This document shows positions 13,954-63,893 of a stretch of DNA of 64,000 bases, piece by piece. Position 1 is the stretch's first letter; the number at the start of each line of letters is the position of its first letter. The DNA is taken from the sequence record NC_135729.1; one strand, written 5' to 3'. This DNA comes from a phage. Under the pieces are notes generated by a model, which saw nothing but the letters and a program-made list of their open reading frames with translations, ran no database searches and was not told the DNA's origin. A program made the translations under genes and the position numbers.

Positions 13954-13982
13954 TAGCAACCCTCCGTTTTAATTTTAATGAT

Positions 13983-28475: not shown

Positions 28476-28504
28476 TTGACTAATAGTATTAGATAATCTA
28501 TAAT
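28476..28504 (+). promoter_or_regulatory. sigma70-like promoter followed by 5' stem-loop
   Basis: TTGACT - 17 nt - TATAAT, then hairpin GGCTCACT-ttgt-AGTGAGCC at 28508-28528. Confidence 0.55.
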
Positions 28505-28544
28505 AATGGCTCACTTTGTTAGTGAGCCAGAAATGGAGACAGAT

Positions 28545-29006
28545 ATGAGTAATGTTATGATTCCTAAAAAGACATTTATTTCAGTTACTTTGGATTTCCT
28601 ATCTACTGTTCCCGGGTTTAACGTTCGCACACGAAACGGTCTCCGAGCTGCACTCTTTGCCGTAGGGTTTGATTTAAAAAGTATTGATGTTCTTCGTGGA
28701 AAAAACGTTCGATGCAGAAATAAGCCAACACATTATCGAAAGGCAGATGTATTTGCTGGTGTTATGCGTGCAGACTTTAGATACCCGCAAATGTATAACG
28801 GTGTAGATATTTTAGATGTGGATAAAGCACCCGGTGAGGCAATGCTTGTTCAAGATCTTCCGTATGATATCCCTGTAGAGGATCGTGTTAATGTAAGAAA
28901 GTATACAAAACAATCTGAAAAGGCTGAAGATATTCATATTGTTGATGAACCTTTCAATTTTGAAGATCTGCATCGCCTGGAAAAATTATTCGGTATTGAA
29001 AGCTAA
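28545..29006 (+). CDS. hypothetical protein
   Basis: Start moved to ATG 28545 because the track start lies inside the leader hairpin. Confidence 0.4.
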   Translation: MSNVMIPKKTFISVTLDFLSTVPGFNVRTRNGLRAALFAVGFDLKSIDVLRGKNVRCRNKPTHYRKADVFAGVMRADFRYPQMYNGVDILDVDKAPGEAMLVQDLPYDIPVEDRVNVRKYTKQSEKAEDIHIVDEPFNFEDLHRLEKLFGIES

Positions 29007-43094: not shown

Positions 43095-43156
43095 TAGTTG
43101 AGATATGGCACAAAGGATGTGCCATAGTGAAATAAACTAAGAAAGAGGTAGAGAGA

Positions 43157-45955: not shown

Positions 45956-45984
45956 TTGACACAATGCTTCAGCTATAGTATTAT
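45956..45984 (+). promoter_or_regulatory. sigma70-like promoter with 5' leader stem-loop
   Basis: TTGACA - 17 nt - TATTAT, then hairpin AAAGAGAGA..TCTCTCTT at 45991-46018. Confidence 0.55.
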
Positions 45985-46036
45985 TGTTTTCAAAGAGAGA
46001 TGGTTGTTACTCTCTCTTCCTTAAAAGGAGCACGTT

Positions 46037-46354
46037 ATGCAAATTGAAATCACTGGCAACGTAGAAATCACTGAAGGTATGGTGTCTTTCATTTCCCACA
46101 AAATGTCTAAGCTGGAGCGTTTGCACCCATCTGCCAACTATGCACGTGTGAGTGTAAAAGTTGAAAATGATCACCAGGAAGTCATGGCGTTCATTTTTGA
46201 CACTTCCGGAAAAGAAGTTATTGCCAAAGCTAAAGGTAGTGACGCTTACGAGGCAACTGACCGTATGGTAGATGTTGCAGCACGTCAGCTGGCTAAATGC
46301 GGTGGAAAGAAAGGTAAGGGGAAAGGCAAAGTAAAGATTGACTTTGGAGAATGA
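46037..46354 (+). CDS. hpf: ribosome hibernation promoting factor homologue (HPF/RaiA family)
   Basis: MQIEITGNVEITEGM...KLERL...VKVEN...AKGSDAYEATDRMVDVAARQL colinear with recalled E. coli HPF; Lys/Gly-rich tail. Confidence 0.6.
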   Translation: MQIEITGNVEITEGMVSFISHKMSKLERLHPSANYARVSVKVENDHQEVMAFIFDTSGKEVIAKAKGSDAYEATDRMVDVAARQLAKCGGKKGKGKGKVKIDFGE

Positions 46355-54744: not shown

Positions 54745-54793
54745 GGTGTTTTTACCTCTTAGTTAATTTTCTTACAACTTCCCTTCAAAAAAG

Positions 54794-54822
54794 AATATAG
54801 CAAAACTGCCGATCCCTGTCAA
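54794..54822 (-). promoter_or_regulatory. sigma70-like promoter overlapped by dyad
   Basis: TTGACA - 17 nt - TATATT on minus strand; -35 lies inside TCCCT..AGGGA inverted repeat. Confidence 0.5.
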
Positions 54823-54888
54823 CAAGGGATAGCATAATTTTTATGTGATCAAGGGGCTTTATTGCCCCTGACCATGTAACTTGTTGTA

Positions 54889-55151
54889 TTATTTGTTGCT
54901 CATCCAGTTTTCCCAAGCTGCCTGATAATCTGCCTCACTACGGCGGATCTCTTCTTGTTCTTCAAGCCGGATCTCTTCTTCCAGGTACCCCAAGATGTCA
55001 GCCTTTTTAGTCTGGCGTAACATCCAATCGTCTTTTTTGCGAGTAAAGATCTTGTACGCTTTCTCGCAAACTTCTTTTTTGCTACCTTTTTGGACTTCAA
55101 GAATTCTGTAAGCCATGTACTGAACTAGTTTGAGCTGGTCAAGACGTTTCA
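54889..55151 (-). CDS. hypothetical protein
   Basis: Start ATG 55151 after AAAGAGGAAAACATC; leader hairpin GGGCC..GGCCC at 55185-55198. Confidence 0.4.
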
Positions 55152-55213
55152 TGATGTTTTCCTCTTTATGTGGTCCTGGTTTAGTGGGCCTTTTGGCCCG
55201 TGTCATTATCTTA

Positions 55214-55486
55214 TTACTTACGGCGGCAGAATTCAAGCGTTTTTAATTGATAATCTTCCTCAGCCTGGAGTACAACCGCCTCGATCATTTCGTTGGCATT
55301 GTTGAAGCCATACCCTTTAGCGAACTCGTCCGCACCACCTTCGTGATCATGTTCTGCGTTCATCGCTTCCACAAAATGGAATTCAAGATTATTGAGGTAA
55401 GGGCTTGATGTTCCGTCCTCTTTTTCGATGAGATCCCATATAGCATTAAAACGTGATTCGACCTCTTGATTAATCCAGCTTGACAT
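55214..55486 (-). CDS. hypothetical acidic protein
   Basis: Start ATG 55486 after AGAGAGGAAAACATC; leader hairpin at 55516-55534. Confidence 0.4.
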   Translation of the reverse strand: MSSWINQEVESRFNAIWDLIEKEDGTSSPYLNNLEFHFVEAMNAEHDHEGGADEFAKGYGFNNANEMIEAVVLQAEEDYQLKTLEFCRRK

Positions 55487-55544
55487 GATGTTTTCCTCTC
55501 TTCTGGTTGTTGTGTGGGGCAAACGTCTTGCCCCTTCAAGATAA

Positions 55545-55573
55545 ATGTTACCCCACCCCATGGCAGATGTCAA
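55545..55573 (-). promoter_or_regulatory. sigma70-like promoter plus 5' stem-loop cassette
   Basis: TTGACA - 17 nt - TAACAT, then GGGGCAAGACGTTTGCCCC hairpin and CA-rich leader. Confidence 0.45.
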
Positions 55574-55655
55574 CGGTTTTTATAGTTCTTATATGACAGG
55601 CAGGCCCGGTGATTGTCTCCCCCCGTCGCCAGGTGCCTGCCGTGGAATAAGTATA

Positions 55656-55686
55656 ACAAAAAACAGGACCATTGCAAGCCCTGTTT
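55656..55686 (-). terminator. rho-independent terminator
   Basis: AACAGG..CCTGTT stem followed on minus strand by TTTTTGTTAT. Confidence 0.5.
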
Positions 55687-55701
55687 TGTAGTTTATAAAT
55701 A

Positions 55702-55893
55702 TTATATTTTTTCGCCTATGTAGTCCGGTCGGTTTTTCTCTGTCATGCGCTTTAGCAATTCTTGCATGTTACTTATGGCTTGTAGTGTATCCTCTTCCAG
55801 GCTTGAATCAACATAATCAGGATCGTCTATGACCTTTCTATGATTATGATAACGCAGTACCGCTAATACCTTTCTAACTTGTTCGATATTCAT
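55702..55893 (-). CDS. hypothetical protein
   Basis: 63-aa ORF. Confidence 0.4.
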   Translation of the reverse strand: MNIEQVRKVLAVLRYHNHRKVIDDPDYVDSSLEEDTLQAISNMQELLKRMTEKNRPDYIGEKI

Positions 55894-55905
55894 TTTTATC
55901 GCTCT

Positions 55906-56040
55906 TTAAAACAAGGTGCCAACCGTTTCCAATAGATCACTGACTATCAGGACAACACTGATCAGCACATACCTAACCATAAGGGGAAAGAGCGCCAGTA
56001 TTGCTACCACAATCCCCAAGGTGATGGTTATCTTTCTCAT
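55906..56040 (-). CDS. small membrane peptide (44 aa)
   Basis: Hydrophobic ORF MRKITITLGIVVAILALFPLMV...; start 3 nt after upstream stop; below ORF-track size cutoff. Confidence 0.3.
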   Translation of the reverse strand: MRKITITLGIVVAILALFPLMVRYVLISVVLIVSDLLETVGTLF

Positions 56041-56042
56041 GG

Positions 56043-56327
56043 TTAACGGTTTACGTAAGCTTTACCGTTTACGGTGATGGGTAGATCTTCCAGATCTGGA
56101 TCTTCCTTAAGGTCGCGAGCAAGCTCACCGCACCGGATACCCTCGAATCCGTAGTACTCTGTCGTGCCGTCCTGGAAAGTTTTAGCGGCAAGGCATAAGC
56201 GATAAGTAACCCCGATTTGATTGACGGCATGAATATCCGTTAGATTAACCTCTTTTGCCAGCTCTTTAGCCATTACAGGCGCATTAAGTCCAACAACCAG
56301 GGCAACCACTGCGATCATCTTTTTCAT
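56043..56327 (-). CDS. secreted protein with signal peptide
   Basis: MKKMIAVVALVVGLNAPVMA then KE; 94 aa; AGAGGA Shine-Dalgarno. Confidence 0.45.
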   Translation of the reverse strand: MKKMIAVVALVVGLNAPVMAKELAKEVNLTDIHAVNQIGVTYRLCLAAKTFQDGTTEYYGFEGIRCGELARDLKEDPDLEDLPITVNGKAYVNR

Positions 56328-56418
56328 TGTGTCTATCCTCTTTCTGCTACGTTTAAGGCGGCGGTAACCGCCTGTTTATGCTTTGTTGGTTAATTTTCGG
56401 GTATCGGTATAAATTAAA

Positions 56419-56634
56419 CTATGCTGTACGCTCAACTATAACAACGGTTTGGGGGATCTCACCTTCCACCACTAATAAGGCCTTTTTCTGCGTGATGGAT
56501 ATCTTTACCCGTTGCAGCGTGGCGGTGAAGTCTTTCATTTCGTCACGTGGTGTTTTAGTGCAATACCAGATCTCAGGCTTGCCGATCTGTAAGTTGCGTA
56601 AAAATTCTGTTTTGCCTGTTTTGTTAGTGATCAT
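56419..56634 (-). CDS. hypothetical protein
   Basis: 71-aa ORF. Confidence 0.35.
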   Translation of the reverse strand: MITNKTGKTEFLRNLQIGKPEIWYCTKTPRDEMKDFTATLQRVKISITQKKALLVVEGEIPQTVVIVERTA

Positions 56635-56643
56635 TTGCCAACC

Positions 56644-56748
56644 TCACCCGATACCGTTGGAAGACAAGATCATATTAGACATGGTTGCAATCAGGCCAAT
56701 ACCCAGGGCAATAACCAGGATCACCGCATCAATTAATTTCTGTTTCAT
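56644..56748 (-). CDS. small membrane peptide (34 aa)
   Basis: MKQKLIDAVILVIALGIGLIATMSNMILSSNGIG; AGAGGAAAACAAG before ATG; leader hairpin 56781-56802. Confidence 0.3.
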   Translation of the reverse strand: MKQKLIDAVILVIALGIGLIATMSNMILSSNGIG

Positions 56749-56838
56749 CTTGTTTTCCTCTTCTTGTTCCAGGTGGCGGACCATTCCACCGCCTTATGTA
56801 TTATGCTTTGTTAGATGGTTGTTCGTTGTCAAGCTATT

Positions 56839-57018
56839 TTAACGATAATCATCGTACGCTTTATTAACCTGGCGAATATAACATTCAAAAGCCAGATCAA
56901 TAGATTTATATTCACGGATATATTCACCATAGGAAACCACATACATTTCTATAGCTTCCTCATATGCGAGGAGAATAGAATCTAAGCCTACGATCTCAGT
57001 CTTTGCAATAATAGCCAT
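56839..57018 (-). CDS. hypothetical acidic protein (59 aa)
   Basis: AAAGAGGAT before ATG; promoter plus hairpin cassette upstream; below ORF-track size cutoff. Confidence 0.35.
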   Translation of the reverse strand: MAIIAKTEIVGLDSILLAYEEAIEMYVVSYGEYIREYKSIDLAFECYIRQVNKAYDDYR

Positions 57019-57070
57019 GATTTTTTATCCTCTTTGTGGTTGGTGGGGCTTGTTGCCCCCTTTGATTTAT

Positions 57071-57099
57071 ATTCTACAGTCTTATAAGGCCATGTCAAC
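57071..57099 (-). promoter_or_regulatory. sigma70-like promoter plus 5' stem-loop cassette
   Basis: TTGACA - 16 nt - TAGAAT, then GGGGGCAACAAGCCCC hairpin at 57045-57060 and CA-rich leader. Confidence 0.55.
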
Positions 57100-57329
57100 T
57101 ATTTTTCAAAAAATTTTTCTGCTGTGATATTCTTCCCGGTAGGGTTCGCTACTTTCAAAATTTTATCATGCACTGGACGCCCAAAAGAGTAAGCGCCGTA
57201 CACAGTAAACCAATAATCGCCGTCAGGCTGTACTATTACCGCCGCATATGGTACGCCTTTTTCGTTATTGCTGACAAAATAGATCACGTTGCCATTAATA
57301 GCCTCGGCGCGTTTAATTTGTTCCATCAT
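57099..57329 (-). CDS. hypothetical protein
   Basis: 76-aa ORF; intercistronic hairpin GGGGGGCC..GGCCCC at 57361-57379. Confidence 0.4.
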   Translation of the reverse strand: MMEQIKRAEAINGNVIYFVSNNEKGVPYAAVIVQPDGDYWFTVYGAYSFGRPVHDKILKVANPTGKNITAEKFFEK

Positions 57330-57385
57330 GATGATTTGCCTCTCTTTATTTTCATAATTGGGGGGCCTTTTCGGCCCCGCCAGGT

Positions 57386-57670
57386 TTATTTATTGATAGC
57401 GTGTAGCGGGAAAGGTACGCCAGGTTGATAGATAACTTTTACAACTTCATCCGGGCAAAAGAAGTTGCAGAACTCACCGCAATAAGCCTCATCCTCTTTT
57501 AATTCTTCATCAACATACTGGAAAAAGTAGTCAACGCTAGGATAATCCTGCCCAGGATTATAGTCAACCATAGTCAGCAACATTTCTTGATCGTTCCGAA
57601 GGATATGCATACCCGCTTTTAAGTATTTTGCTTCCATTTCCACTACATCGCCAACGGTAACAATAGCCAT
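57386..57670 (-). CDS. hypothetical acidic protein
   Basis: 94-aa ORF with GGAG Shine-Dalgarno. Confidence 0.4.
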   Translation of the reverse strand: MAIVTVGDVVEMEAKYLKAGMHILRNDQEMLLTMVDYNPGQDYPSVDYFFQYVDEELKEDEAYCGEFCNFFCPDEVVKVIYQPGVPFPLHAINK

Positions 57671-57727
57671 GGTTTTAACTCCTATCTATCCGGTTAATGA
57701 TTGGGGGCCGCCCCCCTGATGCGTCCT

Positions 57728-57755
57728 ATTATCCATATTGTCAGGAATGATGCAA
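57728..57755 (-). promoter_or_regulatory. sigma70-like promoter plus 5' stem-loop cassette
   Basis: TTGCAT - 16 nt - GATAAT, then GGGGGCGGCCCCC hairpin at 57703-57715. Confidence 0.5.
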
Positions 57756-57870
57756 GTACTTTTTAAAAATTTTTAAGCGCCCCGTATGCCGTTGTAACGC
57801 CAAAATAATAAAGGCCATGCAACCGCATAGCCTTTATGTGATTATATTGCTGCAGGCCCTGCTAGGGGCC

Positions 57871-58221
57871 TTATTTTGCATTCTTGCCTGTATTGCCGCC
57901 ACGGTACCAGCGTCTGCGGTGAAAATGGTAATAATCACCCTCGGCATTAAACATCAGATGATTTTCAATAACCAGCTTACGAAGGTAGGCCGGATCTTGT
58001 TCCATTCTTGCCAGATTCCAGCGGCTGTTACGTAAGCGTATAAATTCCATATTCAGGCCGTTGATTGCAGTATGGATGTCAAAGTAACCACCTTTGAGAC
58101 GTTCACGCATGGCGTTAAGCTCAACACAATATACAGATTTCTCACAAATCAAGGTATTAGCTATGGCGCGGACCTGGGCAAGGGGGTTAAGCTCATTAAG
58201 GTAATATAGTTTTACTTTCAT
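57871..58221 (-). CDS. hypothetical protein
   Basis: 116-aa ORF. Confidence 0.4.
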   Translation of the reverse strand: MKVKLYYLNELNPLAQVRAIANTLICEKSVYCVELNAMRERLKGGYFDIHTAINGLNMEFIRLRNSRWNLARMEQDPAYLRKLVIENHLMFNAEGDYYHFHRRRWYRGGNTGKNAK

Positions 58222-58238
58222 AAAATCACCTGCTGAAA

Positions 58239-58537
58239 TTAGTTTGAGAAAACATCGTTCACAATAGCGATCACAATGCCGCCCACCTTGTCACGGTCAA
58301 CAACGCACAAATCACCATAGATCATGTGGTAGTCTGGATGATCTTTCACAGAATAGTCGATAAGTGTTTTCTTGTCATCCAGCTTACTAACTTCCATTCT
58401 CATAACGATATGAGAATCATCAAAGGCATTATTCCGAAAAGTCATAACCTGACCGCCAGGGCACCCGGTGATTTCCACCTCCACGCCGTCTACGATCTGA
58501 CCATCAAAGAAATAAAGATTATTAGCCTGGATAAACA
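58239..58537 (-). CDS. hypothetical protein
   Basis: Start ATG 58537 with GGAG 8 nt upstream; conserved 60-bp element lies upstream. Confidence 0.4.
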
Positions 58538-58566
58538 TGATCATTACTCCTTTTTGCACTGATTAT

Positions 58567-58626
58567 TTTAACAGGGTTTAAATTTACTTTATTGATGGCC
58601 CTAGAGTCAAGGCCATCTAAAAATAA
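58567..58626. repeat. conserved 60-bp element, copy 1 (hairpin GATGGCC..GGCCATC with U-rich and A-rich arms)
   Basis: Near-identical to 62313-62370; hairpin core 58593-58616. Confidence 0.6.
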
Positions 58627-58629
58627 ATT

Positions 58630-58830
58630 TTACAGGCCTACAATCTCTTTGATTCGTTTAACCGCCGCCTCAGCGCCTTGGGGGTAAAAATTATGGTAAC
58701 CAATCACGCGAGTGATACTAATCGCCGTTTGATGATCTTCATAGTCGCCCTTGAAGATTTCTTGACCGTCAATCAGCACGGCAATTTTTTCTTCTTTTTT
58801 GAAGTTAATAACGCGGATATTGTTGCTCAT
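58630..58830 (-). CDS. hypothetical protein
   Basis: 66-aa ORF with AAAGGAGAAACAAAA leader. Confidence 0.4.
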   Translation of the reverse strand: MSNNIRVINFKKEEKIAVLIDGQEIFKGDYEDHQTAISITRVIGYHNFYPQGAEAAVKRIKEIVGL

Positions 58831-58886
58831 TTTTGTTTCTCCTTTCTGGTTTTTGTGTTGGTGGGGATGTTTCCCCGTTGATTGTT

Positions 58887-58914
58887 ATTATCCATATTCC
58901 GGACCGGATTGCAA
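58887..58914 (-). promoter_or_regulatory. sigma70-like promoter plus 5' stem-loop cassette
   Basis: TTGCAA - 16 nt - GATAAT, then GGGGAAACATCCCC hairpin at 58863-58876 and CA-rich leader. Confidence 0.55.
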
Positions 58915-58970
58915 CACCCGGGAAGAAAAATTTTTGAAAAAGTTAAGCCCCCAGGGATTGGGGGCCGTTA

Positions 58971-59090
58971 TCAGTTACTTACAGCGATAAAGTACATCCC
59001 TACGCCTAACAATATTTCAAGGGCGATGATCTCAAGCCATACCATAACACGGCGCACCTTATCGGTGCGGGGCTTATCCTTGGTTGTCAT
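58971..59090 (-). CDS. small membrane peptide (39 aa)
   Basis: MTTKDKPRTDKVRRVMVWLEIIALEILLGVGMYFIAVSN; terminator-like hairpin downstream at 58928-58952. Confidence 0.3.
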   Translation of the reverse strand: MTTKDKPRTDKVRRVMVWLEIIALEILLGVGMYFIAVSN

Positions 59091-59110
59091 CGTCTCCCCC
59101 TCCCCTCCTG

Positions 59111-59332
59111 TTAGCAGTGACGTGGTTTGCAATGGCCCCCAGGAGTATTATCACCACGCACATTACAAGAAAAATTATCTCTGTCGTTGTTCGATCCATT
59201 GTTATAAAATTCCTTAAGATCAGGCCTGAAAATAAAGCTTTCGTTATTGAATCCATCGCGCCAGGCGGCTGGCTTCAAATCTTCACTAAAGGGATTAATT
59301 AACGTGGCATTATTTAAACGGCTGGTCCACAT
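59111..59332 (-). CDS. hypothetical Asn/Gly-rich protein
   Basis: Start ATG 59332 with GAGAGG Shine-Dalgarno; competes with overlapping frame 59074-59256. Confidence 0.3.
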   Translation of the reverse strand: MWTSRLNNATLINPFSEDLKPAAWRDGFNNESFIFRPDLKEFYNNGSNNDRDNFSCNVRGDNTPGGHCKPRHC

Positions 59333-59681
59333 ATTTTCTATTCCTCTCAAATAGGCGATCCGCCTCAGTCAAACAAATCTCATGGGCGTGATCTCTGGTT
59401 TTAGCTTCATCGAAAACCTGTTGTGCAAGGCTGCAACGTAGGGAGACTGGAAGATCGCTGTAGTAGGCGTTGACAAATGTTTGAGCGTCGTACAGGTCTG
59501 AAAATACTTTACCCTTTCTATTATTCCCCTTGTCAACAATTGCAAGGATAACCAATACAATAGTTGCAACCACTCCCAGGAAAATAGATATAATAAACCA
59601 TAAAAAGGCGGATCTGCCCATCTTGCCAGCGATCCAGGCGTTAAACAAGGCAACTAATATAGCCAAAATAATAAATTCCAT
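59310..59681 (-). CDS. membrane protein with two predicted TM helices
   Basis: Start ATG 59681 with AGAGG; two hydrophobic helices then a soluble C-terminal domain. Confidence 0.4.
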   Translation of the reverse strand: MEFIILAILVALFNAWIAGKMGRSAFLWFIISIFLGVVATIVLVILAIVDKGNNRKGKVFSDLYDAQTFVNAYYSDLPVSLRCSLAQQVFDEAKTRDHAHEICLTEADRLFERNRKYVDQPFK

Positions 59682-59748
59682 TCTATGTACCTCTTTTACA
59701 GTTCTGATTAACAATAAGGCGGCAAATATGCCGCCGCCTGTTACCTGA

Positions 59749-60129
59749 TTAAAAATTATCGCCGTAAATCTTTCCGCTTTCTACCCATACCACCACGCGG
59801 GGCATACTATCCCACACATCTTGTTTTAGATTGAGCGCGTGCAATTCTTCGGTGGTGCTCATACCAGGCACGGGCTGATTGTATACTGCAAAACGACCAC
59901 CTGCATAATCATAGGCCAGAGTTAAATCACACTGAATCATCTTTTTGATCATGGCGTTAAGCATAGCGTTAGCCGCATATTGGTCACGTTTTAAAGGCAA
60001 CTCTTTGATTAGTTTGCGATAGTTTTCGATATGGTCGCACACAGTTTCACGTGGAAGATCTTTCATATCTTCACGGAATGTAACCAGGTTAAACATAACG
60101 GTGTCAATAGCCTTGGTGGTGTTTTTCAT
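59749..60129 (-). CDS. hypothetical protein
   Basis: Start ATG 60129 after AAAGAGGAAAACATC; hairpin 60154-60173. Confidence 0.4.
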   Translation of the reverse strand: MKNTTKAIDTVMFNLVTFREDMKDLPRETVCDHIENYRKLIKELPLKRDQYAANAMLNAMIKKMIQCDLTLAYDYAGGRFAVYNQPVPGMSTTEELHALNLKQDVWDSMPRVVVWVESGKIYGDNF

Positions 60130-60182
60130 GATGTTTTCCTCTTTGTTTTGTGTGGGGCAAGTCATCTCGCCCCTTGAGTTTT

Positions 60183-60210
60183 AATATAGCAGGTTTTTAG
60201 ATTATTGCAA
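60183..60210 (-). promoter_or_regulatory. sigma70-like promoter plus 5' stem-loop cassette
   Basis: TTGCAA - 16 nt - TATATT, then GGGGCGAGATGACTTGCCCC hairpin. Confidence 0.55.
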
Positions 60211-60218
60211 CACTTTAT

Positions 60219-60842
60219 TTATGAAAAACTCATCTCCCCATATTCATCCACATTAAACCGCCAATCATTGGCTTCAATAAGGCCGATCAGGTTTTCGGTA
60301 GTAAACTGTTCAAGATAGGCCTCCTCCAGGTCTACATAAACCTTGCGGGATAGCTCCCGTACCGTCTCGGTGATCAGCTCTTCCAGCTCTTCAACCTTAC
60401 TTTCTTGCTTGGCTGTCAGGTCTAGCCATGTAGTATCGATGTACCCGCTTACAGTGTTTTCGTGACTATAGCGGCTATATGGATCACGCTCAACACTTGC
60501 GGATAGCTCGCCATCGTGCATTGTGCCGAACAAGTGACGAATTGAGCGGAATTTAGTCAGAGACTTGACTTTACGCAAGAATTTTTCTAAATCCACGTTT
60601 TCCGCACTGATTGACGCGCCGTCGCCCTGGCACCAAAAGCCGGACCAATGTACCTTGGTATCTTCAAGGCCATACTCTGGAAAGATATGTTCTTTATAGT
60701 CTTCAATTACACTTTCTGCAAAAAAGTTATCCCCGCTGTGTTCTTCTCTTTCGCGGACCATTTCAATAGCTTTTTCTTTTTGTTCATCGGTCAGCACGTC
60801 GAAAGATAAATTGTAACCTGTGGTAATGTTAACGGTGGTCAT
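60219..60842 (-). CDS. hypothetical acidic protein
   Basis: 207-aa ORF; AATAGGAGAAAATATC leader. Confidence 0.45.
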   Translation of the reverse strand: MTTVNITTGYNLSFDVLTDEQKEKAIEMVREREEHSGDNFFAESVIEDYKEHIFPEYGLEDTKVHWSGFWCQGDGASISAENVDLEKFLRKVKSLTKFRSIRHLFGTMHDGELSASVERDPYSRYSHENTVSGYIDTTWLDLTAKQESKVEELEELITETVRELSRKVYVDLEEAYLEQFTTENLIGLIEANDWRFNVDEYGEMSFS

Positions 60843-60899
60843 GATATTTTCTCCTATTTTCTTTGTTAGTGGCGGGAAGTTTTCCCGCCTGTGTGTTTA

Positions 60900-60927
60900 A
60901 GTATACTTATCGAGATTTACTTGTCAA
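60900..60927 (-). promoter_or_regulatory. sigma70-like promoter plus 5' stem-loop cassette
   Basis: TTGACA - 16 nt - TATACT, then GGCGGGAAAACTTCCCGCC hairpin at 60871-60889. Confidence 0.6.
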
Positions 60928-61177
60928 CACTATTTTTTAAATTATTGTGGCGCAAAATGCTTAAAATCTCTTCAACGTCATCAACACGGCGGCAATTTTT
61001 AAACGCTACCAATTGCCCCATGATTTTAATCACTGGACGGCCTTGCCAGTGCCCTTGGAGAAAGCGCGCCTTAACTTTATCGGTGGAACTATCACGCCAC
61101 CAAACGGCTTTATTATTGCAGTAGTAAAAATTATTCAGTACTACATCTACCTTATCAAAATTTTTCAATTTACGCAT
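60917..61177 (-). CDS. hypothetical protein
   Basis: 86-aa ORF; GGAAGGAG Shine-Dalgarno; its stop abuts the next promoter. Confidence 0.4.
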   Translation of the reverse strand: MRKLKNFDKVDVVLNNFYYCNNKAVWWRDSSTDKVKARFLQGHWQGRPVIKIMGQLVAFKNCRRVDDVEEILSILRHNNLKNSVDK

Positions 61178-61212
61178 GGCGTTTACTCCTTCCTTCTTGC
61201 TTTGATGTGGTC

Positions 61213-61241
61213 AGTATATCCGGACTATTCCAAGGTGTCAA
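61213..61241 (-). promoter_or_regulatory. sigma70-like promoter
   Basis: TTGACA - 17 nt - TATACT. Confidence 0.55.
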
Positions 61242-61385
61242 GCTTTAAATAAAATCACTGTCAATAACATTTTTAACGCCATAAAACGGCCCTAGACGCT
61301 GTTTTCAGGTTAAGAAAGGGGATTGCATAGGTAGGGGCTTTTATGGCGCTTGTGGGGCCAACCGTGGGCGCTATTCGTAGGATAG

Positions 61386-61412
61386 AAATAAAAACCCCGC
61401 ACAATGGCGGGG
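61386..61412 (-). terminator. rho-independent terminator
   Basis: CCCCGC-cattgt-GCGGGG stem followed on minus strand by TTTTTATTTC. Confidence 0.55.
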
Positions 61413-61421
61413 CGTTGGTTG

Positions 61422-61619
61422 CTATTTGTCTTTGTGGCGGTATCGTTCCGCTTGTCGTTCACGTTCCAAAAGCAGGCTGGGTAATTTGCGATCATAGTGA
61501 TTTCGCCAGATCTTCCCAAATCTTTTCGGCTTATTCAGTTTATTGTTACGCTGGCGTCGTTCCGGCAGCTCTTTGGAATCATGAGATCGCTTTACAATCT
61601 TCTCAAAATTAATCTTCAT
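61422..61619 (-). CDS. small highly basic protein
   Basis: Start ATG 61619 with AGGGGGGAATAT upstream, overlapping the upstream stop (ATGAAGATTAA); Lys/Arg-rich. Confidence 0.4.
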   Translation of the reverse strand: MKINFEKIVKRSHDSKELPERRQRNNKLNKPKRFGKIWRNHYDRKLPSLLLERERQAERYRHKDK

Positions 61620-61962
61620 ATATTCCCCCCTTGCTAACTTCAATATTGGCCTGAATAGCCCGGATACGGCGCTTTATAACCTCCTGATCCTTGCAATCAT
61701 ATCCCCAAAAGTCTACGATTTTTGCGCCTCCAGCCTTTAGGCGGTATAGTGTTTCTTGCATCTTGTAAGCTGGGATCGGTCGCGGTGTTACCTGGTCGCC
61801 CTTCTCATTCTTGTACTTGATAATGTAGTCTTCATTGTCGTTGAATACCCAAAATGGGTATTCTGTGAGCGCGTTGCTCTCTTTTTCGTTTTTAGATTGG
61901 ATCTTGTTTACAATTAAAGCCGTAGCAATAGCGCCAATAATAAAACTTGCCCCGCTGATCAT
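61609..61962 (-). CDS. membrane-anchored protein
   Basis: Start ATG 61962 with AAAGGAGAAAGTA; N-terminal TM helix. Confidence 0.4.
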   Translation of the reverse strand: MISGASFIIGAIATALIVNKIQSKNEKESNALTEYPFWVFNDNEDYIIKYKNEKGDQVTPRPIPAYKMQETLYRLKAGGAKIVDFWGYDCKDQEVIKRRIRAIQANIEVSKGGIYED

Positions 61963-62037
61963 GTACTTTCTCCTTTCATTGTGTTGATAAACTGTCTTTA
62001 TAGATGGCCCTGCTACCAGGACCACCGAAAAAACAGC

Positions 62038-62283
62038 TTATTTGACGATACCGACAAAACAGATCCCGCCTTCCCCTATATAGGCAATGTCGGTAATTTT
62101 ATAATTTGTCAAGATCCGCGTGTTCAGATCATTAATAAAATCGGTCATCGCGTTGGTGTAGTTGTCTTCCGTGTCTAAGGCATAATCCCAGGTGTAAACC
62201 TTTTTACGTCCGAAGCCTTTTACCATGATACGGGCGCTTTTGGTGTTGGTAGGGGCATAATATTTGGTGATTAGTGCTGCCAT
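62038..62283 (-). CDS. hypothetical protein
   Basis: 81-aa ORF with GAGGAG Shine-Dalgarno; conserved 60-bp element upstream. Confidence 0.4.
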   Translation of the reverse strand: MAALITKYYAPTNTKSARIMVKGFGRKKVYTWDYALDTEDNYTNAMTDFINDLNTRILTNYKITDIAYIGEGGICFVGIVK

Positions 62284-62312
62284 GGTTTTAACTCCTCTGA
62301 ATTAGTTCAGTG

Positions 62313-62370
62313 TTAACAGTACAAAGTTTACTTTATTGATGGCCCTGAAGTCAAGGCCATCTAAAAATAA
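62313..62370. repeat. conserved 60-bp element, copy 2
   Basis: Hairpin core 62338-62361; near-identical to 58567-58626. Confidence 0.6.
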
Positions 62371-62372
62371 AC

Positions 62373-62777
62373 TTAGTAAGTTTTCAGTACTTTACCGTCC
62401 AACCTGTCAAGCTGGATCTCGATAGCTGCAGAAAACCTATTGTAAACCACATCGCCCATAGAATCCAACCAGTCTATGATATTATACACTTGCTCTTTGT
62501 TCTTGCAGGTCCGGATCCGTTTCATGATGTAAGCCGGATCAATATTGGTACTCTCGTTGGTGTTCCCCTGTACCTGGTTTGCCGTATTAGTTACATCTTT
62601 AATGGCCTTTACCACCACCTGGAATGGCTTTAAGGTACCTTTTGCGTTCATCTCACGCGCTTTTGCGGCGCGGTTGTTATATGTTACACAACGGCGGCAA
62701 ATGTTGATCAAATGCATGTCAATAATTTTTTCATCGTTTGCCAGCTCGTTCATGATGCGGCGTACGTTCTTATTCAT
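62373..62777 (-). CDS. hypothetical protein
   Basis: 134-aa ORF; AAAGGAAAAAGAT leader. Confidence 0.45.
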   Translation of the reverse strand: MNKNVRRIMNELANDEKIIDMHLINICRRCVTYNNRAAKAREMNAKGTLKPFQVVVKAIKDVTNTANQVQGNTNESTNIDPAYIMKRIRTCKNKEQVYNIIDWLDSMGDVVYNRFSAAIEIQLDRLDGKVLKTY

Positions 62778-62825
62778 GATCTTTTTCCTTTGTGCTGGCG
62801 GGAAACATTCCCGCCTTTTGTGTCT

Positions 62826-62853
62826 AGTTTACTTGAATTTTGCAGCGTGTCAA
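62826..62853 (-). promoter_or_regulatory. sigma70-like promoter plus 5' stem-loop cassette
   Basis: TTGACA - 16 nt - TAAACT, then GGCGGGAATGTTTCCCGCC hairpin at 62798-62816. Confidence 0.55.
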
Positions 62854-62864
62854 TAATTTTTTTT

Positions 62865-63263
62865 TTATTCGTGGGCACATGTTACAATGTGCTTTTTATA
62901 GCCTAGGTGGTCAGCAAGTGCTGACAAAAACTCTTCTTCGTAGATCCAGCCGTTGGCAGTGATCCCCATAGCATTTAATGCGCTCTCAAGTGCTGCGTTA
63001 GCTTTATCATAACCGTGACCGCTCGCCTTGCCGCCAGTATAGCCGTACTTATTGTTCTTGTTGTCGTGTATCCAAAAAACGCAGTAGTAAGTGTTCCCGC
63101 TGGCGGCGGCATAATACCGGATCTCAGCTACTTCGTGCAAATTATTGTCATCGTCCAGGCCCACCAGATTATAAGCCTTGTAAAATCCACGATCACGGCG
63201 GCAGTTCTTGACATCAGAAAAAGAAAAGTCTGCATTATCAAAATTAAAGGTAGTGGTTTTCAT
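62865..63263 (-). CDS. hypothetical protein
   Basis: 132-aa ORF with AAGAGGAT Shine-Dalgarno. Confidence 0.45.
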   Translation of the reverse strand: MKTTTFNFDNADFSFSDVKNCRRDRGFYKAYNLVGLDDDNNLHEVAEIRYYAAASGNTYYCVFWIHDNKNNKYGYTGGKASGHGYDKANAALESALNAMGITANGWIYEEEFLSALADHLGYKKHIVTCAHE

Positions 63264-63295
63264 GATTTTATCCTCTTAGTGTCTTTTGTGCTTTT

Positions 63296-63325
63296 AGTGT
63301 ATTTGGTGTCGGACTATATGTCAAT
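63296..63325 (-). promoter_or_regulatory. sigma70-like promoter
   Basis: TTGACA - 17 nt - TACACT, CA-rich leader. Confidence 0.5.
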
Positions 63326-63327
63326 AC

Positions 63328-63525
63328 TTATTTTTTATTAAACCAGTGGTTGATCTGACCTTTTGTCAGGGCGCAACGATTAAGCTGTTGCAGGGTATAG
63401 CTATGACCGCGACGAAATTTATAAAGGCCTTGCCCGTTGTTGATGGTTACATCCACCCGGCAAATCACTTGATTGGTGACCACCTGGCGAGTGTTGCGAC
63501 GTACTTTGATCCCGTATGCGTTCAT
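63328..63525 (-). CDS. small basic protein
   Basis: Start ATG 63525 with AAAGAGGATAAATTT leader. Confidence 0.35.
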   Translation of the reverse strand: MNAYGIKVRRNTRQVVTNQVICRVDVTINNGQGLYKFRRGHSYTLQQLNRCALTKGQINHWFNKK

Positions 63526-63575
63526 AAATTTATCCTCTTTACTGGTTAGTGCGGTGTTGTTCACCTTGTAGGGTA

Positions 63576-63603
63576 ATAATACCATGATTAACCTTGTTGT
63601 CAA
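63576..63603 (-). promoter_or_regulatory. sigma70-like promoter
   Basis: TTGACA - 16 nt - TATTAT. Confidence 0.5.
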
Positions 63604-63611
63604 CGACTATT

Positions 63612-63893
63612 TTAAATTATTTTTATGATAGAATCCACCTGCCGCCGCCCTGCCAGGTTAACCATCATTTTTTCGTACTCTTCTTTATGTTCCAACGCTC
63701 CCGCCATGGCCTTTTCAACCAGGGCGATAGCCTCAGCGTCATTAATAGCTACATTTTCCAGGCTGGCCCCGCCAGGTGGCACAATATACCTATCGAAAGG
63801 ACGGCAGGCACCGGTGACGGGGGAGACAACCACCGGGGATGGGCGCTGCATAAAATGAGAACGGTTATCATTATCATTTAAAAATTTATGCAA
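63612..63893 (-). CDS. hypothetical protein
   Basis: 93-aa ORF; upstream region continues past the window edge. Confidence 0.35.
   Translation of the reverse strand: MHKFLNDNDNRSHFMQRPSPVVVSPVTGACRPFDRYIVPPGGASLENVAINDAEAIALVEKAMAGALEHKEEYEKMMVNLAGRRQVDSIIKII

Follow-up and report, generated by a model that had tools for sequence, protein, structure and literature searches.

Promoter-hairpin-leader cassettes reiterated in a variable early-gene cluster of an rV5-like Vequintavirus

Promoter-early stem-loop (PeSL) cassettes have been described in the T4-like phages RB49/phi1, PST and nt-1 (Arbiol et al. 2010, PMC2839356; Comeau et al. 2014, PMC4122927). The elements studied here resemble them in being intergenic, about 70-90 nt long and present in many copies within a variable region rich in ORFans. 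In both, the promoter is strong, sigma70-like and preceded by AT-rich DNA, the stem-loop is of the polyG/polyC type, an A/C-rich leader is followed by a conserved Shine-Dalgarno (SD) sequence, and the junctions of gene insertions, deletions and replacements fall in the cassettes. However, the phages that host them are unrelated (Straboviridae versus Vequintavirinae here), and the two sets, compared by inspection, show no sequence resemblance. In phi1, the stem-loop lies between the -35 element and the -10 or over the latter and is therefore absent from that promoter's transcript, whereas in the main class here it lies 10 +/- 1 nt past the -10. One PeSL subclass is matched by the class B element of this region, in which the -35 lies inside the hairpin. 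By analogy, the cassettes are best read as counterparts of PeSLs whose hairpin would have moved onto the 5' end of the transcript.

The second related group comprises 5' stabilisers, such as the ompA and papA 5' UTRs and synthetic 5' hairpins, in which, as here, a hairpin a few nucleotides from the 5' end precedes a strong, open ribosome site. The hairpin in the T7 gene 10 leader is a 5'-terminal stem-loop stabiliser of the same kind. Emory and colleagues reportedly found in 1992 that the hairpin must sit within 2-4 nt of the 5' end and that its sequence is unimportant. In ompA, the two protective elements are the 5'-proximal hairpin and the open, strong ribosome site (PMC7509114, PMC3997798); when the 5' end is base-paired, RNase E is slowed more than 10-fold, and RppH prefers single-stranded 5' ends (PMC3997798). 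Unlike these systems, the design described here recurs on about ten consecutive genes and across several phage lineages, and its 5' position is predicted.

We analyzed a window of 64,000 nt, the whole stretch of DNA under study, from an rV5-like coliphage of the genus Vequintavirus (Vequintavirinae; myovirus). The region of interest is a variable cluster of early genes that are small and uncharacterised (ORFans), most of which carry their own private, reiterated expression cassette. Each cassette runs from a sigma70 promoter through 2-4 free nt, a hairpin of the G-run/C-run type, an open A/C-rich spacer and a strong SD to the ATG; the start site is predicted, from promoter geometry, about 8 nt past the -10. 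An earlier note on this DNA had listed 11 minus-strand hairpins, and all 11 were found where it had placed them, with stems of 5-8 bp containing 4-6 G-C pairs each (4-10 bp in the wider cassette set). It had said that most begin about 10 nt past a near-consensus -10; eight lie 8-11 nt past a sigma70-type -10, the hairpin at 56790 follows a promoter with a crippled 21-nt spacer, and those at 56373 and 57378 are promoterless. The seven at 9-11 nt follow good promoters, with a -35 of TTGACA, TTGCAA or TTGCAT, a spacer of 16-17 nt and a -10 of TAAACT, TATACT, TATATT, GATAAT, TAGAAT or TAACAT. As the note had also described, the 3' spacer is CA-rich (A 54%, C 27%, G 8%, T 10%; background 32/20/22/26) and has no U-tract, none of these hairpins being called terminator-like on the minus strand, and the hairpins differ in sequence rather than in position (at least seven unrelated sequences occupy the same place). 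Several strong promoters of the cluster (63324, 61241 and 54822) have no hairpin, indicating that it is not obligatory.

Eight minus-strand cassettes constitute class A. At 62775-62853, in a cassette unchanged in 10 relatives, TTGACA-16-TAAACT is followed after 10 nt by the hairpin GGCGGGAATGTTTCCCGCC (62815-62797; MFE -14.6 kcal/mol, z -2.75) and then by the leader AGCACAAAGGAAAAAGATC and ATG 62777. The cassette at 60840-60927 consists of TTGACA-16-TATACT, 10 nt, the hairpin GGCGGGAAAACTTCCCGCC (60889-60871; z -4.5), an A/C-rich leader, AGGAG and ATG 60842; its L013 ortholog has GGTGGGAACAATTCCCGCC, in which pairing is kept through a coding-strand U.G wobble. At 60127-60210, TTGCAA-16-TATATT precedes by 9 nt the hairpin GGGGCGAGATGACTTGCCCC (60173-60154; z -4.3), replaced by GGGGCAAGACGTTTGCCCC or GGGGCAAACGTCTTGCCCC in orthologs, with the leader ACACAAAACAAAGAGGAAAACATC and ATG 60129. 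Two cassettes lie downstream of terminators: 58828-58914 (TTGCAA-16-GATAAT, 10 nt, hairpin GGGGAAACATCCCC at 58876-58863, ATG 58830), directly after the U-tract terminator 58966-58946, and 57668-57755 (TTGCAT-16-GATAAT, 11 nt, hairpin GGGGGGCGGCCCCC at 57716-57703, ATG 57670), after the terminator 57837-57808. The former hairpin has five ortholog variants, all foldable into a hairpin; the latter has eight, GGAGGTGATGCCTCC among them, and a z of only -0.15 because of its G/C-run composition. At 57016-57098, TTGACA-16-TAGAAT, 11 nt and the hairpin GGGGCAACAAGCCCC (57059-57045) lead to the leader ACCAACCACAAAGAGGA and ATG 57018; a homology block stops at the 3' edge of this hairpin, and the gene behind it is preceded by GGCGGCAATGGTGCCGCC in Phapecoctavirus. 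The cassette at 55484-55573 has TTGACA-17-TAACAT, 10 nt, the hairpin GGGGCAAGACGTTTGCCCC (55534-55516; z -3.4; the shorter GGGCAAAAGTGCCC in most relatives), the leader ACACAACAACCAGAAGAGAGGAAAACATC and ATG 55486. Finally, 55150-55236 has a weaker promoter (TTGAAT-17-TAAGAT) and, 8 nt on, the hairpin GGGCCAAAAGGCCC (55199-55186), with ATG 55152; a recombination junction coincides with its leader/SD (55158-55174).

The other minus-strand members are atypical. At 56746-56832, the hairpin GGTGGAATGGTCCGCC (56790-56775) follows TTGACA and CATAAT 21 nt apart (17 nt in SophiaRose and inoa); the promoter is therefore probably crippled in this genome. A promoterless hairpin and leader at 56325-56373 (AGGCGGTTACCGCCGCCT, 56373-56356) looks like a degenerate copy of that cassette, both carrying ACAAAGCATAA. 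The second promoterless hairpin, in 57327-57378 (GGGGCCGAAAAGGCCCC, 57378-57362; MFE -19 kcal/mol), lies right past a stop codon and upstream of ATG 57329 and has no U-tract. Being promoterless, neither can be 5'-terminal in a primary transcript. A twelfth, weak case, absent from the earlier list, lies at 63523-63603 (TTGACA-16-TATTAT, 10 nt, 4-bp hairpin GGTGAACAACACC at 63565-63553, z -0.75, ATG 63525). The class B element at 62324-62374 is a hairpin of about 47 nt (core GATGGCCTTGACTTCAGGGCCATC, 62361-62338), with the -35 (TTGACT) lying inside it and its AT-rich upstream part paired to the -10 region; as a direct repeat, it flanks a two-gene insert in relatives. Within repeat family D2, a second copy at 58580-58630 (core 58617-58594) is 92% identical to it, and a diverged class B-like copy at 61989-62039 (GGTGGTCCTGGTAGCAGGGCCATC, 62026-62003) is 67% identical. 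The pattern had also been claimed at three plus-strand sites, and its geometry was confirmed at one, 45956-46039 (TTGACA-17-TATTAT, 9 nt, hairpin 45994-46017, GGAG, ATG 46037), where an AG/CT-rich stem gives a weak fold (z -1.1). At 28476-28548 (TTGACT-17-TATAAT), the stem of the hairpin 28507-28529 begins 2-3 nt past the -10, so that the predicted start falls inside it, and the leader hairpin at 43104-43126 (TATGGCACAAAGGATGTGCCATA) has no convincing upstream promoter; neither belongs to class A.

Hairpins are coupled to promoters far above chance. When hairpins were randomly placed within the intergenic DNA of the window, 0.43 were expected 9-11 nt past an intergenic promoter scoring at least 9/12, compared with six observed (0/20000 permutations). 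Among unique cassettes, the distance from -10 to stem peaked at 10 nt (42/95) and was 10-11 nt in 65%. Position 7 past the -10 was usually a pyrimidine (62/78) and position 8 usually a purine (65/78), and 2-4 unpaired 5' nt were predicted in 61/78. All 11 leaders folded into a few free nucleotides, the hairpin and then an open SD and AUG, with z between -2.2 and -4.5 in 10 of them. Isolated G.U wobbles occurred in 10 unique hairpins (about six independent families) and only on the coding strand, compared with no A.C mismatches, and the sense fold was the stabler one in at least 17 cases versus 3.

The hairpins were kept in all 11 Vequintavirus genomes despite sequence replacements and indels. 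Diversity per column was highest in loops (0.29), with 0.07-0.09 for arms and 0.05 for the -10; stems thus come close to the -10 in conservation, and loops vary most. In the GGCGG-type family, 98.6% of cells were paired, three of eight pairs had changed on both sides, and the covariation score was 0.171 versus 0.081 after shuffling (0/500). Swapping arms between orthologous hairpins did not weaken them significantly (p = 0.13), since almost every stem consists of G-runs and C-runs that can stand in for one another, and strict ortholog covariation was weak. Judged from these comparisons, selection appears to act on pairing rather than on hairpin sequence.

We give a probability of roughly 0.5 to the reading that the cassettes are early-gene expression units in which a generic 5'-terminal stem-loop protects the mRNA and the cassette parts double as exchange patches. 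A strong host sigma70 promoter would drive a transcript whose hairpin lies 2-4 nt from the predicted 5' end, so that RppH and the 5'-end sensor of RNase E would find too little single-stranded RNA at the 5' end and early transcripts would be protected; the G- and U-poor spacer would keep the ribosome site open. The hairpin is most plausibly a stabiliser against RppH/RNase E, its effect and the start position being inferred. The earlier note had proposed such a role, and the anatomy supports it: a hairpin close to the predicted 5' end, free in sequence but kept in pairing, with wobbles confined to the coding strand, no U-tract and an open SD. Literature searches on these phages turned up no mapped transcription start and no half-life or reporter data. 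A match to the PHROG Srd family (E 1e-9) was obtained for gp11 of rV5_ev156; the Srd of T4 stimulates RNase E acting on host mRNA (PMC4980113).

The same design was found in Phapecoctavirus, Justusliebigvirus and jumbo Asteriusvirus phages, where the hairpin is annotated as "promoter" or "terminator". In Escherichia phage ASO2A (MZ726793), homologous hairpins are 'rho-independent terminators' called by WebGeSTer. They share with intrinsic terminators a short intergenic GC-rich stem-loop; however, the cassette hairpins have an A/C-rich tail in place of a 3' U-tract, lie downstream rather than upstream of the next gene's promoter, and coexist with genuine U-tract terminators. The authors who described PeSLs read their stem-loops as attenuators or terminators. 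That the hairpins here attenuate or terminate transcription arriving from the upstream gene, limiting the pile-up of read-through across strong promoters, is unlikely in our view. In a reporter assay (PMC2839356), the U-tract-less PeSL211/210 stem-loop did lower lacZ expression as a strong terminator would, and the WebGeSTer calls and the promoterless hairpins between cistrons at 57378 and 56373 fit the idea. It is opposed by the 10% T in the 3' flank and by the finding that none of these hairpins was flagged on the coding strand, whereas genuine U-tract terminators lie nearby, three of them (58966, 57837 and 55687) immediately upstream of a promoter and hairpin. Moreover, a terminator does not need a fixed 10 +/- 1 nt past the next gene's -10, and the phi1 PeSL stem-loop is variable in position.

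In phAPEC8 (JX561091), PHIRE yielded 'putative phage promoters', a 'phage-specific promoter' label akin to a regulator-site reading. The 20-mer in question, GTAGGGCGGCAATGGTGCCG, comprises the 3 nt preceding the homologous hairpin together with the hairpin's own 5' part; unlike a promoter, it contains no promoter-like hexamers, and a sigma70-type promoter stands directly before it. The label stems from repeat discovery, not function. The related view, which we regard as improbable, is that a regulator encoded by the phage and governing early-gene shut-off or timing binds the palindrome, either as a DNA operator (+3 to +22) or as an RNA target. Besides the repeated 20-mer picked by PHIRE, it can draw on conserved arms with a variable centre, which fit a two-half-site operator, and on the hairpin and preceding GTATCACGTAG / GTTTTACATCA, nearly identical across many Phapecoctavirus and PBECO4 cassettes. 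In Phapecoctavirus, the hairpin and preceding 10 nt are conserved far beyond the need of a bare structure, which is compatible with recent gene conversion and also with sequence-specific recognition. In this genome, however, the at least seven unrelated stems at one position and the freely varying loops make the sequence-specific regulator site of the earlier note unlikely, and the strand-specific wobbles (G.U 10, A.C 0) are not predicted for a DNA site.

Promoter escape can be limiting at strong, near-consensus promoters, and the elements occupy +3/+4 of such promoters. A role in initiation, in which the G-rich initial transcribed region or early nascent hairpin aids escape or blocks backtracking and leaves mRNA stability unaffected, is nevertheless very unlikely: complementarity of the 3' arm is conserved, although superfluous for an effect on hybrid stability, and hairpins are still present at sites with a crippled promoter or none (56790, 56373 and 57378).

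Genome comparison identified the cassette parts as junctions for gene gain, loss and exchange between phages, an aspect that, like the PeSL parallel, was absent from the earlier note. Indel breakpoints fall at 55158-55174 (the shared leader), 62325-62385 (the class B direct repeat) and 56733-56764; intergenus homology blocks are gene-sized and end at a stop codon or the 3' edge of the hairpin, and repeat families D1-D4 are cassette modules. These breakpoints and repeated modules, with the homogenised copies in Phapecoctavirus, could mean that the hairpins have no role in expression and are hitch-hiking palindromes or recombination scars spread with shuffled cassettes. We give this only a slight chance: stems are conserved like the -10 while loops drift, pairing is maintained through wobbles and double changes, and the spacing to the predicted start is constrained though the intervening sequences are unrelated. 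Processing by RNase III or a phage nuclease, as the earlier note had also suggested, is highly improbable: the hairpins are intergenic, and RNase III hairpins do serve as processing sites in the early mRNAs of T7, but RNase III needs roughly two helical turns, so that stems of 4-10 bp, far below this and with no conserved loop or bulge sequence, do not support it.

Alongside the protective role preferred here for the 5'-terminal hairpin, the promoter, the leader/SD and the class B hairpin may act as short homology patches at which genes are swapped between phages, the role also proposed for the PeSL cassettes of T4-like phages.

The region carrying the hairpins was 99.8% identical to the record 'Campylobacter phage C5', 97.9% identical to Escherichia phage phiWec191 and approximately 94% identical to numerous rV5-like members of the genus Vequintavirus. 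From 54.3 to 64 kb, it consists of about 27 consecutive small minus-strand genes, each of which is labelled hypothetical in all annotated relatives (ORFans, small genes of unknown function). The rV5 genome paper tabulates the sigma70-like promoters of this ORFan cluster (P168, P174, P185, P194 and others; Table S4, PMC3606486); it also lists 20 U-tract terminators and leaves hairpins 3' of the promoters unmentioned. In the literature on rV5-like and phAPEC8-like phages, we found no account of such a hairpin and no start-site or transcriptome data. Twenty-two GenBank records titled 'Campylobacter phage', with Campylobacter jejuni as the host, also matched the region, some at up to 99.8% (MG065659, MG065655, MG065666 and others). 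Their host label looks doubtful, because across this region these records read as typical rV5-like coliphage.

Mechanical scanning of the minus strand for hairpins recovered all eleven leader hairpins that the earlier note had located in the cluster; each is named here by the upstream end of its stem. The position claimed for most of them, about 10 nt after a near-consensus -10, was correct at seven sites (62815, 60889, 60173, 58876, 57716, 57059 and 55534), where the stem starts 9–11 nt 3' of a good -10; at the other four, promoters are weaker or absent. Hairpin 55199 starts 8 nt 3' of the weaker promoter TTGAAT-17-TAAGAT; at 56790, TTGACA and CATAAT are separated by 21 nt here and by 17 nt in two relatives; and 56373 and 57378 have no promoter. 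Some strong promoters of the cluster also occur without a hairpin. When the 21 intergenic hairpins were placed at random in the 2.2 kb of intergenic DNA, the expected number starting 9–11 nt 3' of an intergenic promoter with a score of 9/12 or more was 0.43, whereas six were observed (0/20000 permutations). The same pattern had been reported on the plus strand, where it held only in part: the spacing was correct at 45994–46017, but the AG/CT stem there is weak, the hairpin at 28507–28529 begins 2–3 nt after the -10, and that at 43104–43126 has no promoter. In a census of the window and the rest of an rV5 genome, the full design, hereafter the class A cassette, was limited to the ORFan cluster and one extra copy elsewhere. 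Each cassette runs from a strong sigma70-like early promoter, AT-rich upstream, through the hairpin and the Shine–Dalgarno sequence (SD) to the start codon of an ORFan. An Rfam search returned best matches at E 0.27–0.95, far under the gathering scores, and no family was assigned.

The best-supported reading of this arrangement is an early expression cassette complete in itself, whose hairpin would be the mRNA's first structured element. All leaders were folded from the predicted start up to the AUG, and each gave 2–4 free nt, a single hairpin and then a fully unpaired spacer, SD and AUG, with hairpin energies of -8.5 to -19 kcal/mol and z values of -2.2 to -4.5 in 10 of 11. In a set of 95 unique cassettes drawn from 12 genomes, the stem most often began 10 nt after the -10 (42/95), and this distance was 10–11 nt in 65%. 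Transcription from sigma70 promoters starts 7–8 nt after the -10, with a pyrimidine at -1 and a purine at +1. A pyrimidine at position 7 after the -10 was found in 62/78 cassettes and a purine at position 8 in 65/78, matching the expectation for a sigma70 start; with starts predicted from this geometry, the unpaired 5' end would measure 2–4 nt in 61/78 cassettes. Emory et al. are reported to have found in 1992 that ompA and heterologous mRNAs gain stability from a hairpin within 2–4 nt of their 5' end, irrespective of the hairpin's sequence. The constraint on spacing between the -10 and the stem is one that a mechanism of 5'-end protection predicts.

Alternatively, the hairpins may be terminators or attenuators, as the authors who described the promoter-early stem-loop (PeSL) cassettes of T4-like phages proposed for theirs; we rate this explanation lower. 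The stretch from hairpin to SD is composed of A 54%, C 27%, G 8% and T 10%, compared with a strand background of 32/20/22/26, in agreement with the CA-rich spacer and the absence of a U-tract described previously. None of the hairpins was flagged as terminator-like on the coding strand, where the scan did flag genuine terminators at 61413, 59739, 58966, 57837 and 55687. Moreover, three cassettes lie directly behind a genuine terminator and promoter, and a terminator does not need a fixed distance after the next -10.

The earlier note had also observed that the hairpins differ in sequence but not in position, and the relatives bear this out. Orthologous sites kept the hairpin in 11 Vequintavirus genomes at all sites, and its sequence was frequently replaced (GGGGCAAGACGTTTGCCCC versus GGGCAAAAGTGCCC; GGGGGGCGGCCCCC versus GGAGGTGATGCCTCC; five variants at 58876). 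A sequence-specific phage regulator that binds the hairpins, one of the roles suggested for them, may apply to the highly homogeneous copies of Phapecoctavirus; for this genome it is unlikely, given that the window has seven unrelated stems at one and the same position. Diversity per column was highest in loops (0.29), followed by the leader (0.12), the arms (0.07–0.09) and the -10 (0.05). We counted isolated internal non-Watson–Crick pairs only, leaving out stretches of A.C 'pairs' in the flanks, which are A/C-rich; every wobble was a coding-strand G.U pair (10 unique hairpins, approximately six independent families), and A.C mismatches, which would be wobbles on the other strand, numbered 0. 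The sense fold was more stable than the antisense fold by >1 kcal/mol in at least 17 unique hairpins, and the opposite was true in 3.

Plain MAFFT misaligned the 3' arms of a one-nt-shorter GGCGG subtype of the GGCGGGAAnnnTTCCCGCC (GGCGG-type) family; we used a covariance-model alignment of 35 matches instead. In this alignment, which was fitted to the model, includes a few antisense rows and gives figures that lean towards structure, 98.6% of cells were paired, both sides had changed in 3/8 pairs (G-C, G.U, A-U at the base), and the covariation score was 0.171 compared with 0.081 in shuffles (0/500) and at most 0.068 in slid controls. An arm-swap chimera test on orthologous hairpins gave no significant difference (p = 0.13), because most stems consist of G-runs and C-runs that can stand in for one another. 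Covariation among orthologs is weak, and we do not claim otherwise. Since the alignment is model-fitted and the arm-swap test was null, the case for selection rests mainly on persistence, position and strand-specific wobble, and covariation in the classical sense adds less to it. Unrelated stems, variable loops set against conserved arms, and pairing retained through wobble and double changes agree with a structure that matters and a sequence that does not, and the arm-swap result stands beside them.

RNase III processing sites, another suggested role, were rejected on stem length, which is 4–10 bp compared with the roughly two helical turns required. An antisense role as plus-strand terminators was judged unlikely: the scan had flagged five hairpins on that strand, but it carries no genes in this region, its T-rich tracts are simply the A-rich start region read in complement, and the wobbles favour the minus strand. 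Since the SD and AUG are unpaired in all of the folds, sequestration of the SD to repress translation was also rejected.

RNase E of E. coli cuts RNA much faster when it can bind an accessible 5' monophosphate; base pairing of the 5' end abolishes this stimulation, and RppH favours single-stranded 5' ends (PMC3997798). In ompA, the second element that protects the mRNA is a strong ribosome site (PMC7509114), and the class A cassette contains both elements of an ompA-type stabiliser, the hairpin, predicted to lie at the 5' end, and the strong ribosome site. The longer, RNase E- and RppH-dependent mRNA half-life that characterises 5'-terminal stabilisers is predicted here. The G- and U-poor spacer would be unable to pair with the SD or the C-rich arm, which would leave initiation open for any plugged-in gene. 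In addition, gp11 of rV5_ev156 matches the Srd family (PHROG, E 1e-9), and the rV5 genome paper likewise proposes Srd identity for the gp11-type protein (PMC3606486). T4 Srd stimulates RNase E on host mRNA (PMC4980113), and an Srd-like gp11 would fit a context of 5' protection. Separately, all class A leaders (e.g., 55515–55487 and 60153–60130) are rich in ACA triplets and bear a likeness to A-R-N repeats; ACA is the cleavage motif of the MazF toxin (PMC3997798).

PeSLs (PMC2839356, PMC4122927) are the known system nearest to the class A cassettes, with which they share their parts list, their genomic niche and a link to modular shuffling. As in PeSLs, the stem-loops are of polyG/polyC type (5' arms 68% G, 3' arms 63% C) and the cassettes cluster in an ORFan-rich, hyperplastic region. 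PeSL stem-loops sit between the -35 and -10, overlap one of the two boxes, fall in the AT-rich region or immediately precede the start; those of phi1 lie between the -35 and -10 or over the -10, and so are off the promoter's own transcript. Class A stems, which start 10 +/- 1 nt after the -10, differ from PeSLs in stem position because they follow the predicted start, whereas the phi1 stems lie within the promoter. Only the class B elements (62361 and 58617), in which a hairpin of about 47 nt encloses the -35 and the AT-rich upstream part is paired with the -10 region within a 51-nt element, have a PeSL-like stem position, and they fit a PeSL subclass. The minus-strand terminator at 55687–55660 is also like a PeSL subclass: its U-tract hairpin AAAACAGGGCTTGCAATGGTCCTGTTTTTTGT carries a -35-like TTGCAA in the loop, with TATACT 16 nt on, and terminator and promoter are thus superimposed. 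The stem-loops of PeSLs are reported to terminate or attenuate transcription, and flanking cassettes to recombine into mini-circles. PeSL phages are unrelated to rV5-like phages, and the cassette sequences are dissimilar by inspection, without formal alignment. The window cassettes resemble PeSLs in their evolution and probably differ from them in expression role.

As in PeSLs, indel and replacement junctions relative to other genomes fell in cassettes, as mapped by collinear comparison with nine relatives. The breakpoint at 55158–55174 is a AAAGAGGAAAACATC leader found in several cassettes, and at this site phiWec191 has an additional 72-aa gene flanked by two similar AAAGAGGAAAACATC-type leaders. 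That at 62325–62385 is the 51-nt class B element, which is single copy here and forms a direct repeat flanking a two-gene insert in most relatives. Other breakpoints (56733–56764; 56699/56825; 55661–55701/55906; 57881/58225) fall within intergenic cassettes or border them, except 56699, which is within the small minus-strand gene 56748–56644. Homology to the Phapecoctavirus Schickermooser takes the form of gene-sized blocks in a different order that end at or near gene boundaries, most clearly at 56837–57046, from stop codon to the 3' edge of a hairpin, and at 57099–57333, which ends 4 nt upstream of an ATG. One gene lies behind GGGGCAACAAGCCCC here and behind GGCGGCAATGGTGCCGCC in Schickermooser.

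Two further elements were observed in or near the cluster. The first, GGCAGGCACCTGGCGACGGGGGGAGACAATCACCGGGCCTGCC, is conserved, GC-rich and about 45 nt long; it lies at 55645–55598 (minus strand), between the hairpin at 55687–55660 and the next promoter, with inverted copies at approximately 63990–63940 and 63835–63790 and another in Schickermooser spacer 2499–2751. The copies at 55.6 kb and near 63.96 kb form a 29-nt inverted repeat (93%) 8.3 kb apart; the third, near 63.8 kb, was found by reading the sequence only. The element, which had no Rfam match, may bind a protein or encode a small structured RNA. A Fur-box-like GATAATGATAACCGTTCTC at 63857–63875 (minus strand), with 3 mismatches to the Fur consensus and 0.04 expected by chance, is located upstream of the ORFan cluster, in a gene-poor stretch. 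Several AATGAGAATGATTGTCATT repeats that resemble it lie after position 13955 in Schickermooser, in a long non-coding stretch. The rV5 genome paper calls the gene-poor stretch 'non-coding' (PMC3606486).

We compared GenBank phage records because an IMG/VR search with a 207-aa ORFan yielded only two close relatives, and cassettes of this kind were absent from six distant IMG/VR loci. This ORFan (60219–60842, minus strand) has homologs 58–60% identical in the jumbo Asteriusvirus phages PBECO4 and slurp01 and 34–47% identical in RaK2 and GAP32, one record annotating a homolog as 'putative YeeU-like antitoxin'; small early ORFans move among very different large phages. The ORFan region of Schickermooser has about 20 highly regular spacers of 80–90 nt, built as TTGACA-N16/17-TAAGAT or TAAACT, GTATCACGTAG, GGCGGCAATGGTGCCGCY or GGCGGGAATAGTTCCCGCY, an A/C-rich leader, AAGAGAGA and ATG. 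The design also occurs in TH18, of another Vequintavirinae lineage, and in PBECO4 (GTATAAT-GTTTTACATCA-GGTGGGGAATAGTTCCCCACT, among others). A search with a 93-nt Phapecoctavirus cassette gave 772 matching sites, spread over 155 phage records from Phapecoctavirus, Justusliebigvirus and some Vequintavirus, with 3–9 BLAST-detectable copies in each Phapecoctavirus genome. GenBank labels the hairpin as 'putative promoter determined with PHIRE' (phAPEC8) and as 'rho-independent terminator predicted by WebGeSTer' (ASO2A). Neither label is likely to be right, and they inflate the counts of promoters and terminators.

A wider proposal is that a single cassette is shared horizontally by Vequintavirinae, Stephanstirmvirinae and Asteriusvirus, and both resists RNase E and seeds ORFan swaps; we regard it as tentative and, taken whole, unlikely. 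Such a cassette would combine a sigma70 promoter, a cap-like 5' hairpin, an A/C-rich leader and an SD in at least three lineages of large virulent coliphages. It would allow early mRNAs to resist 5'-end-dependent decay by RNase E, itself boosted by the Srd-like protein, and would supply homology for ORFan swaps between phages.

If the hairpins are 5' caps, the cassette would provide E. coli expression systems with a compact promoter–5'UTR part of natural origin. If early messages are protected as proposed, this would explain how a phage that is probably speeding host mRNA decay preserves its own. If the cassettes are exchange points, the modular shuffling described for PeSLs would extend to rV5-like, phi92-like and PBECO4-like phages, which would help explain why unrelated large coliphages have the same small genes.
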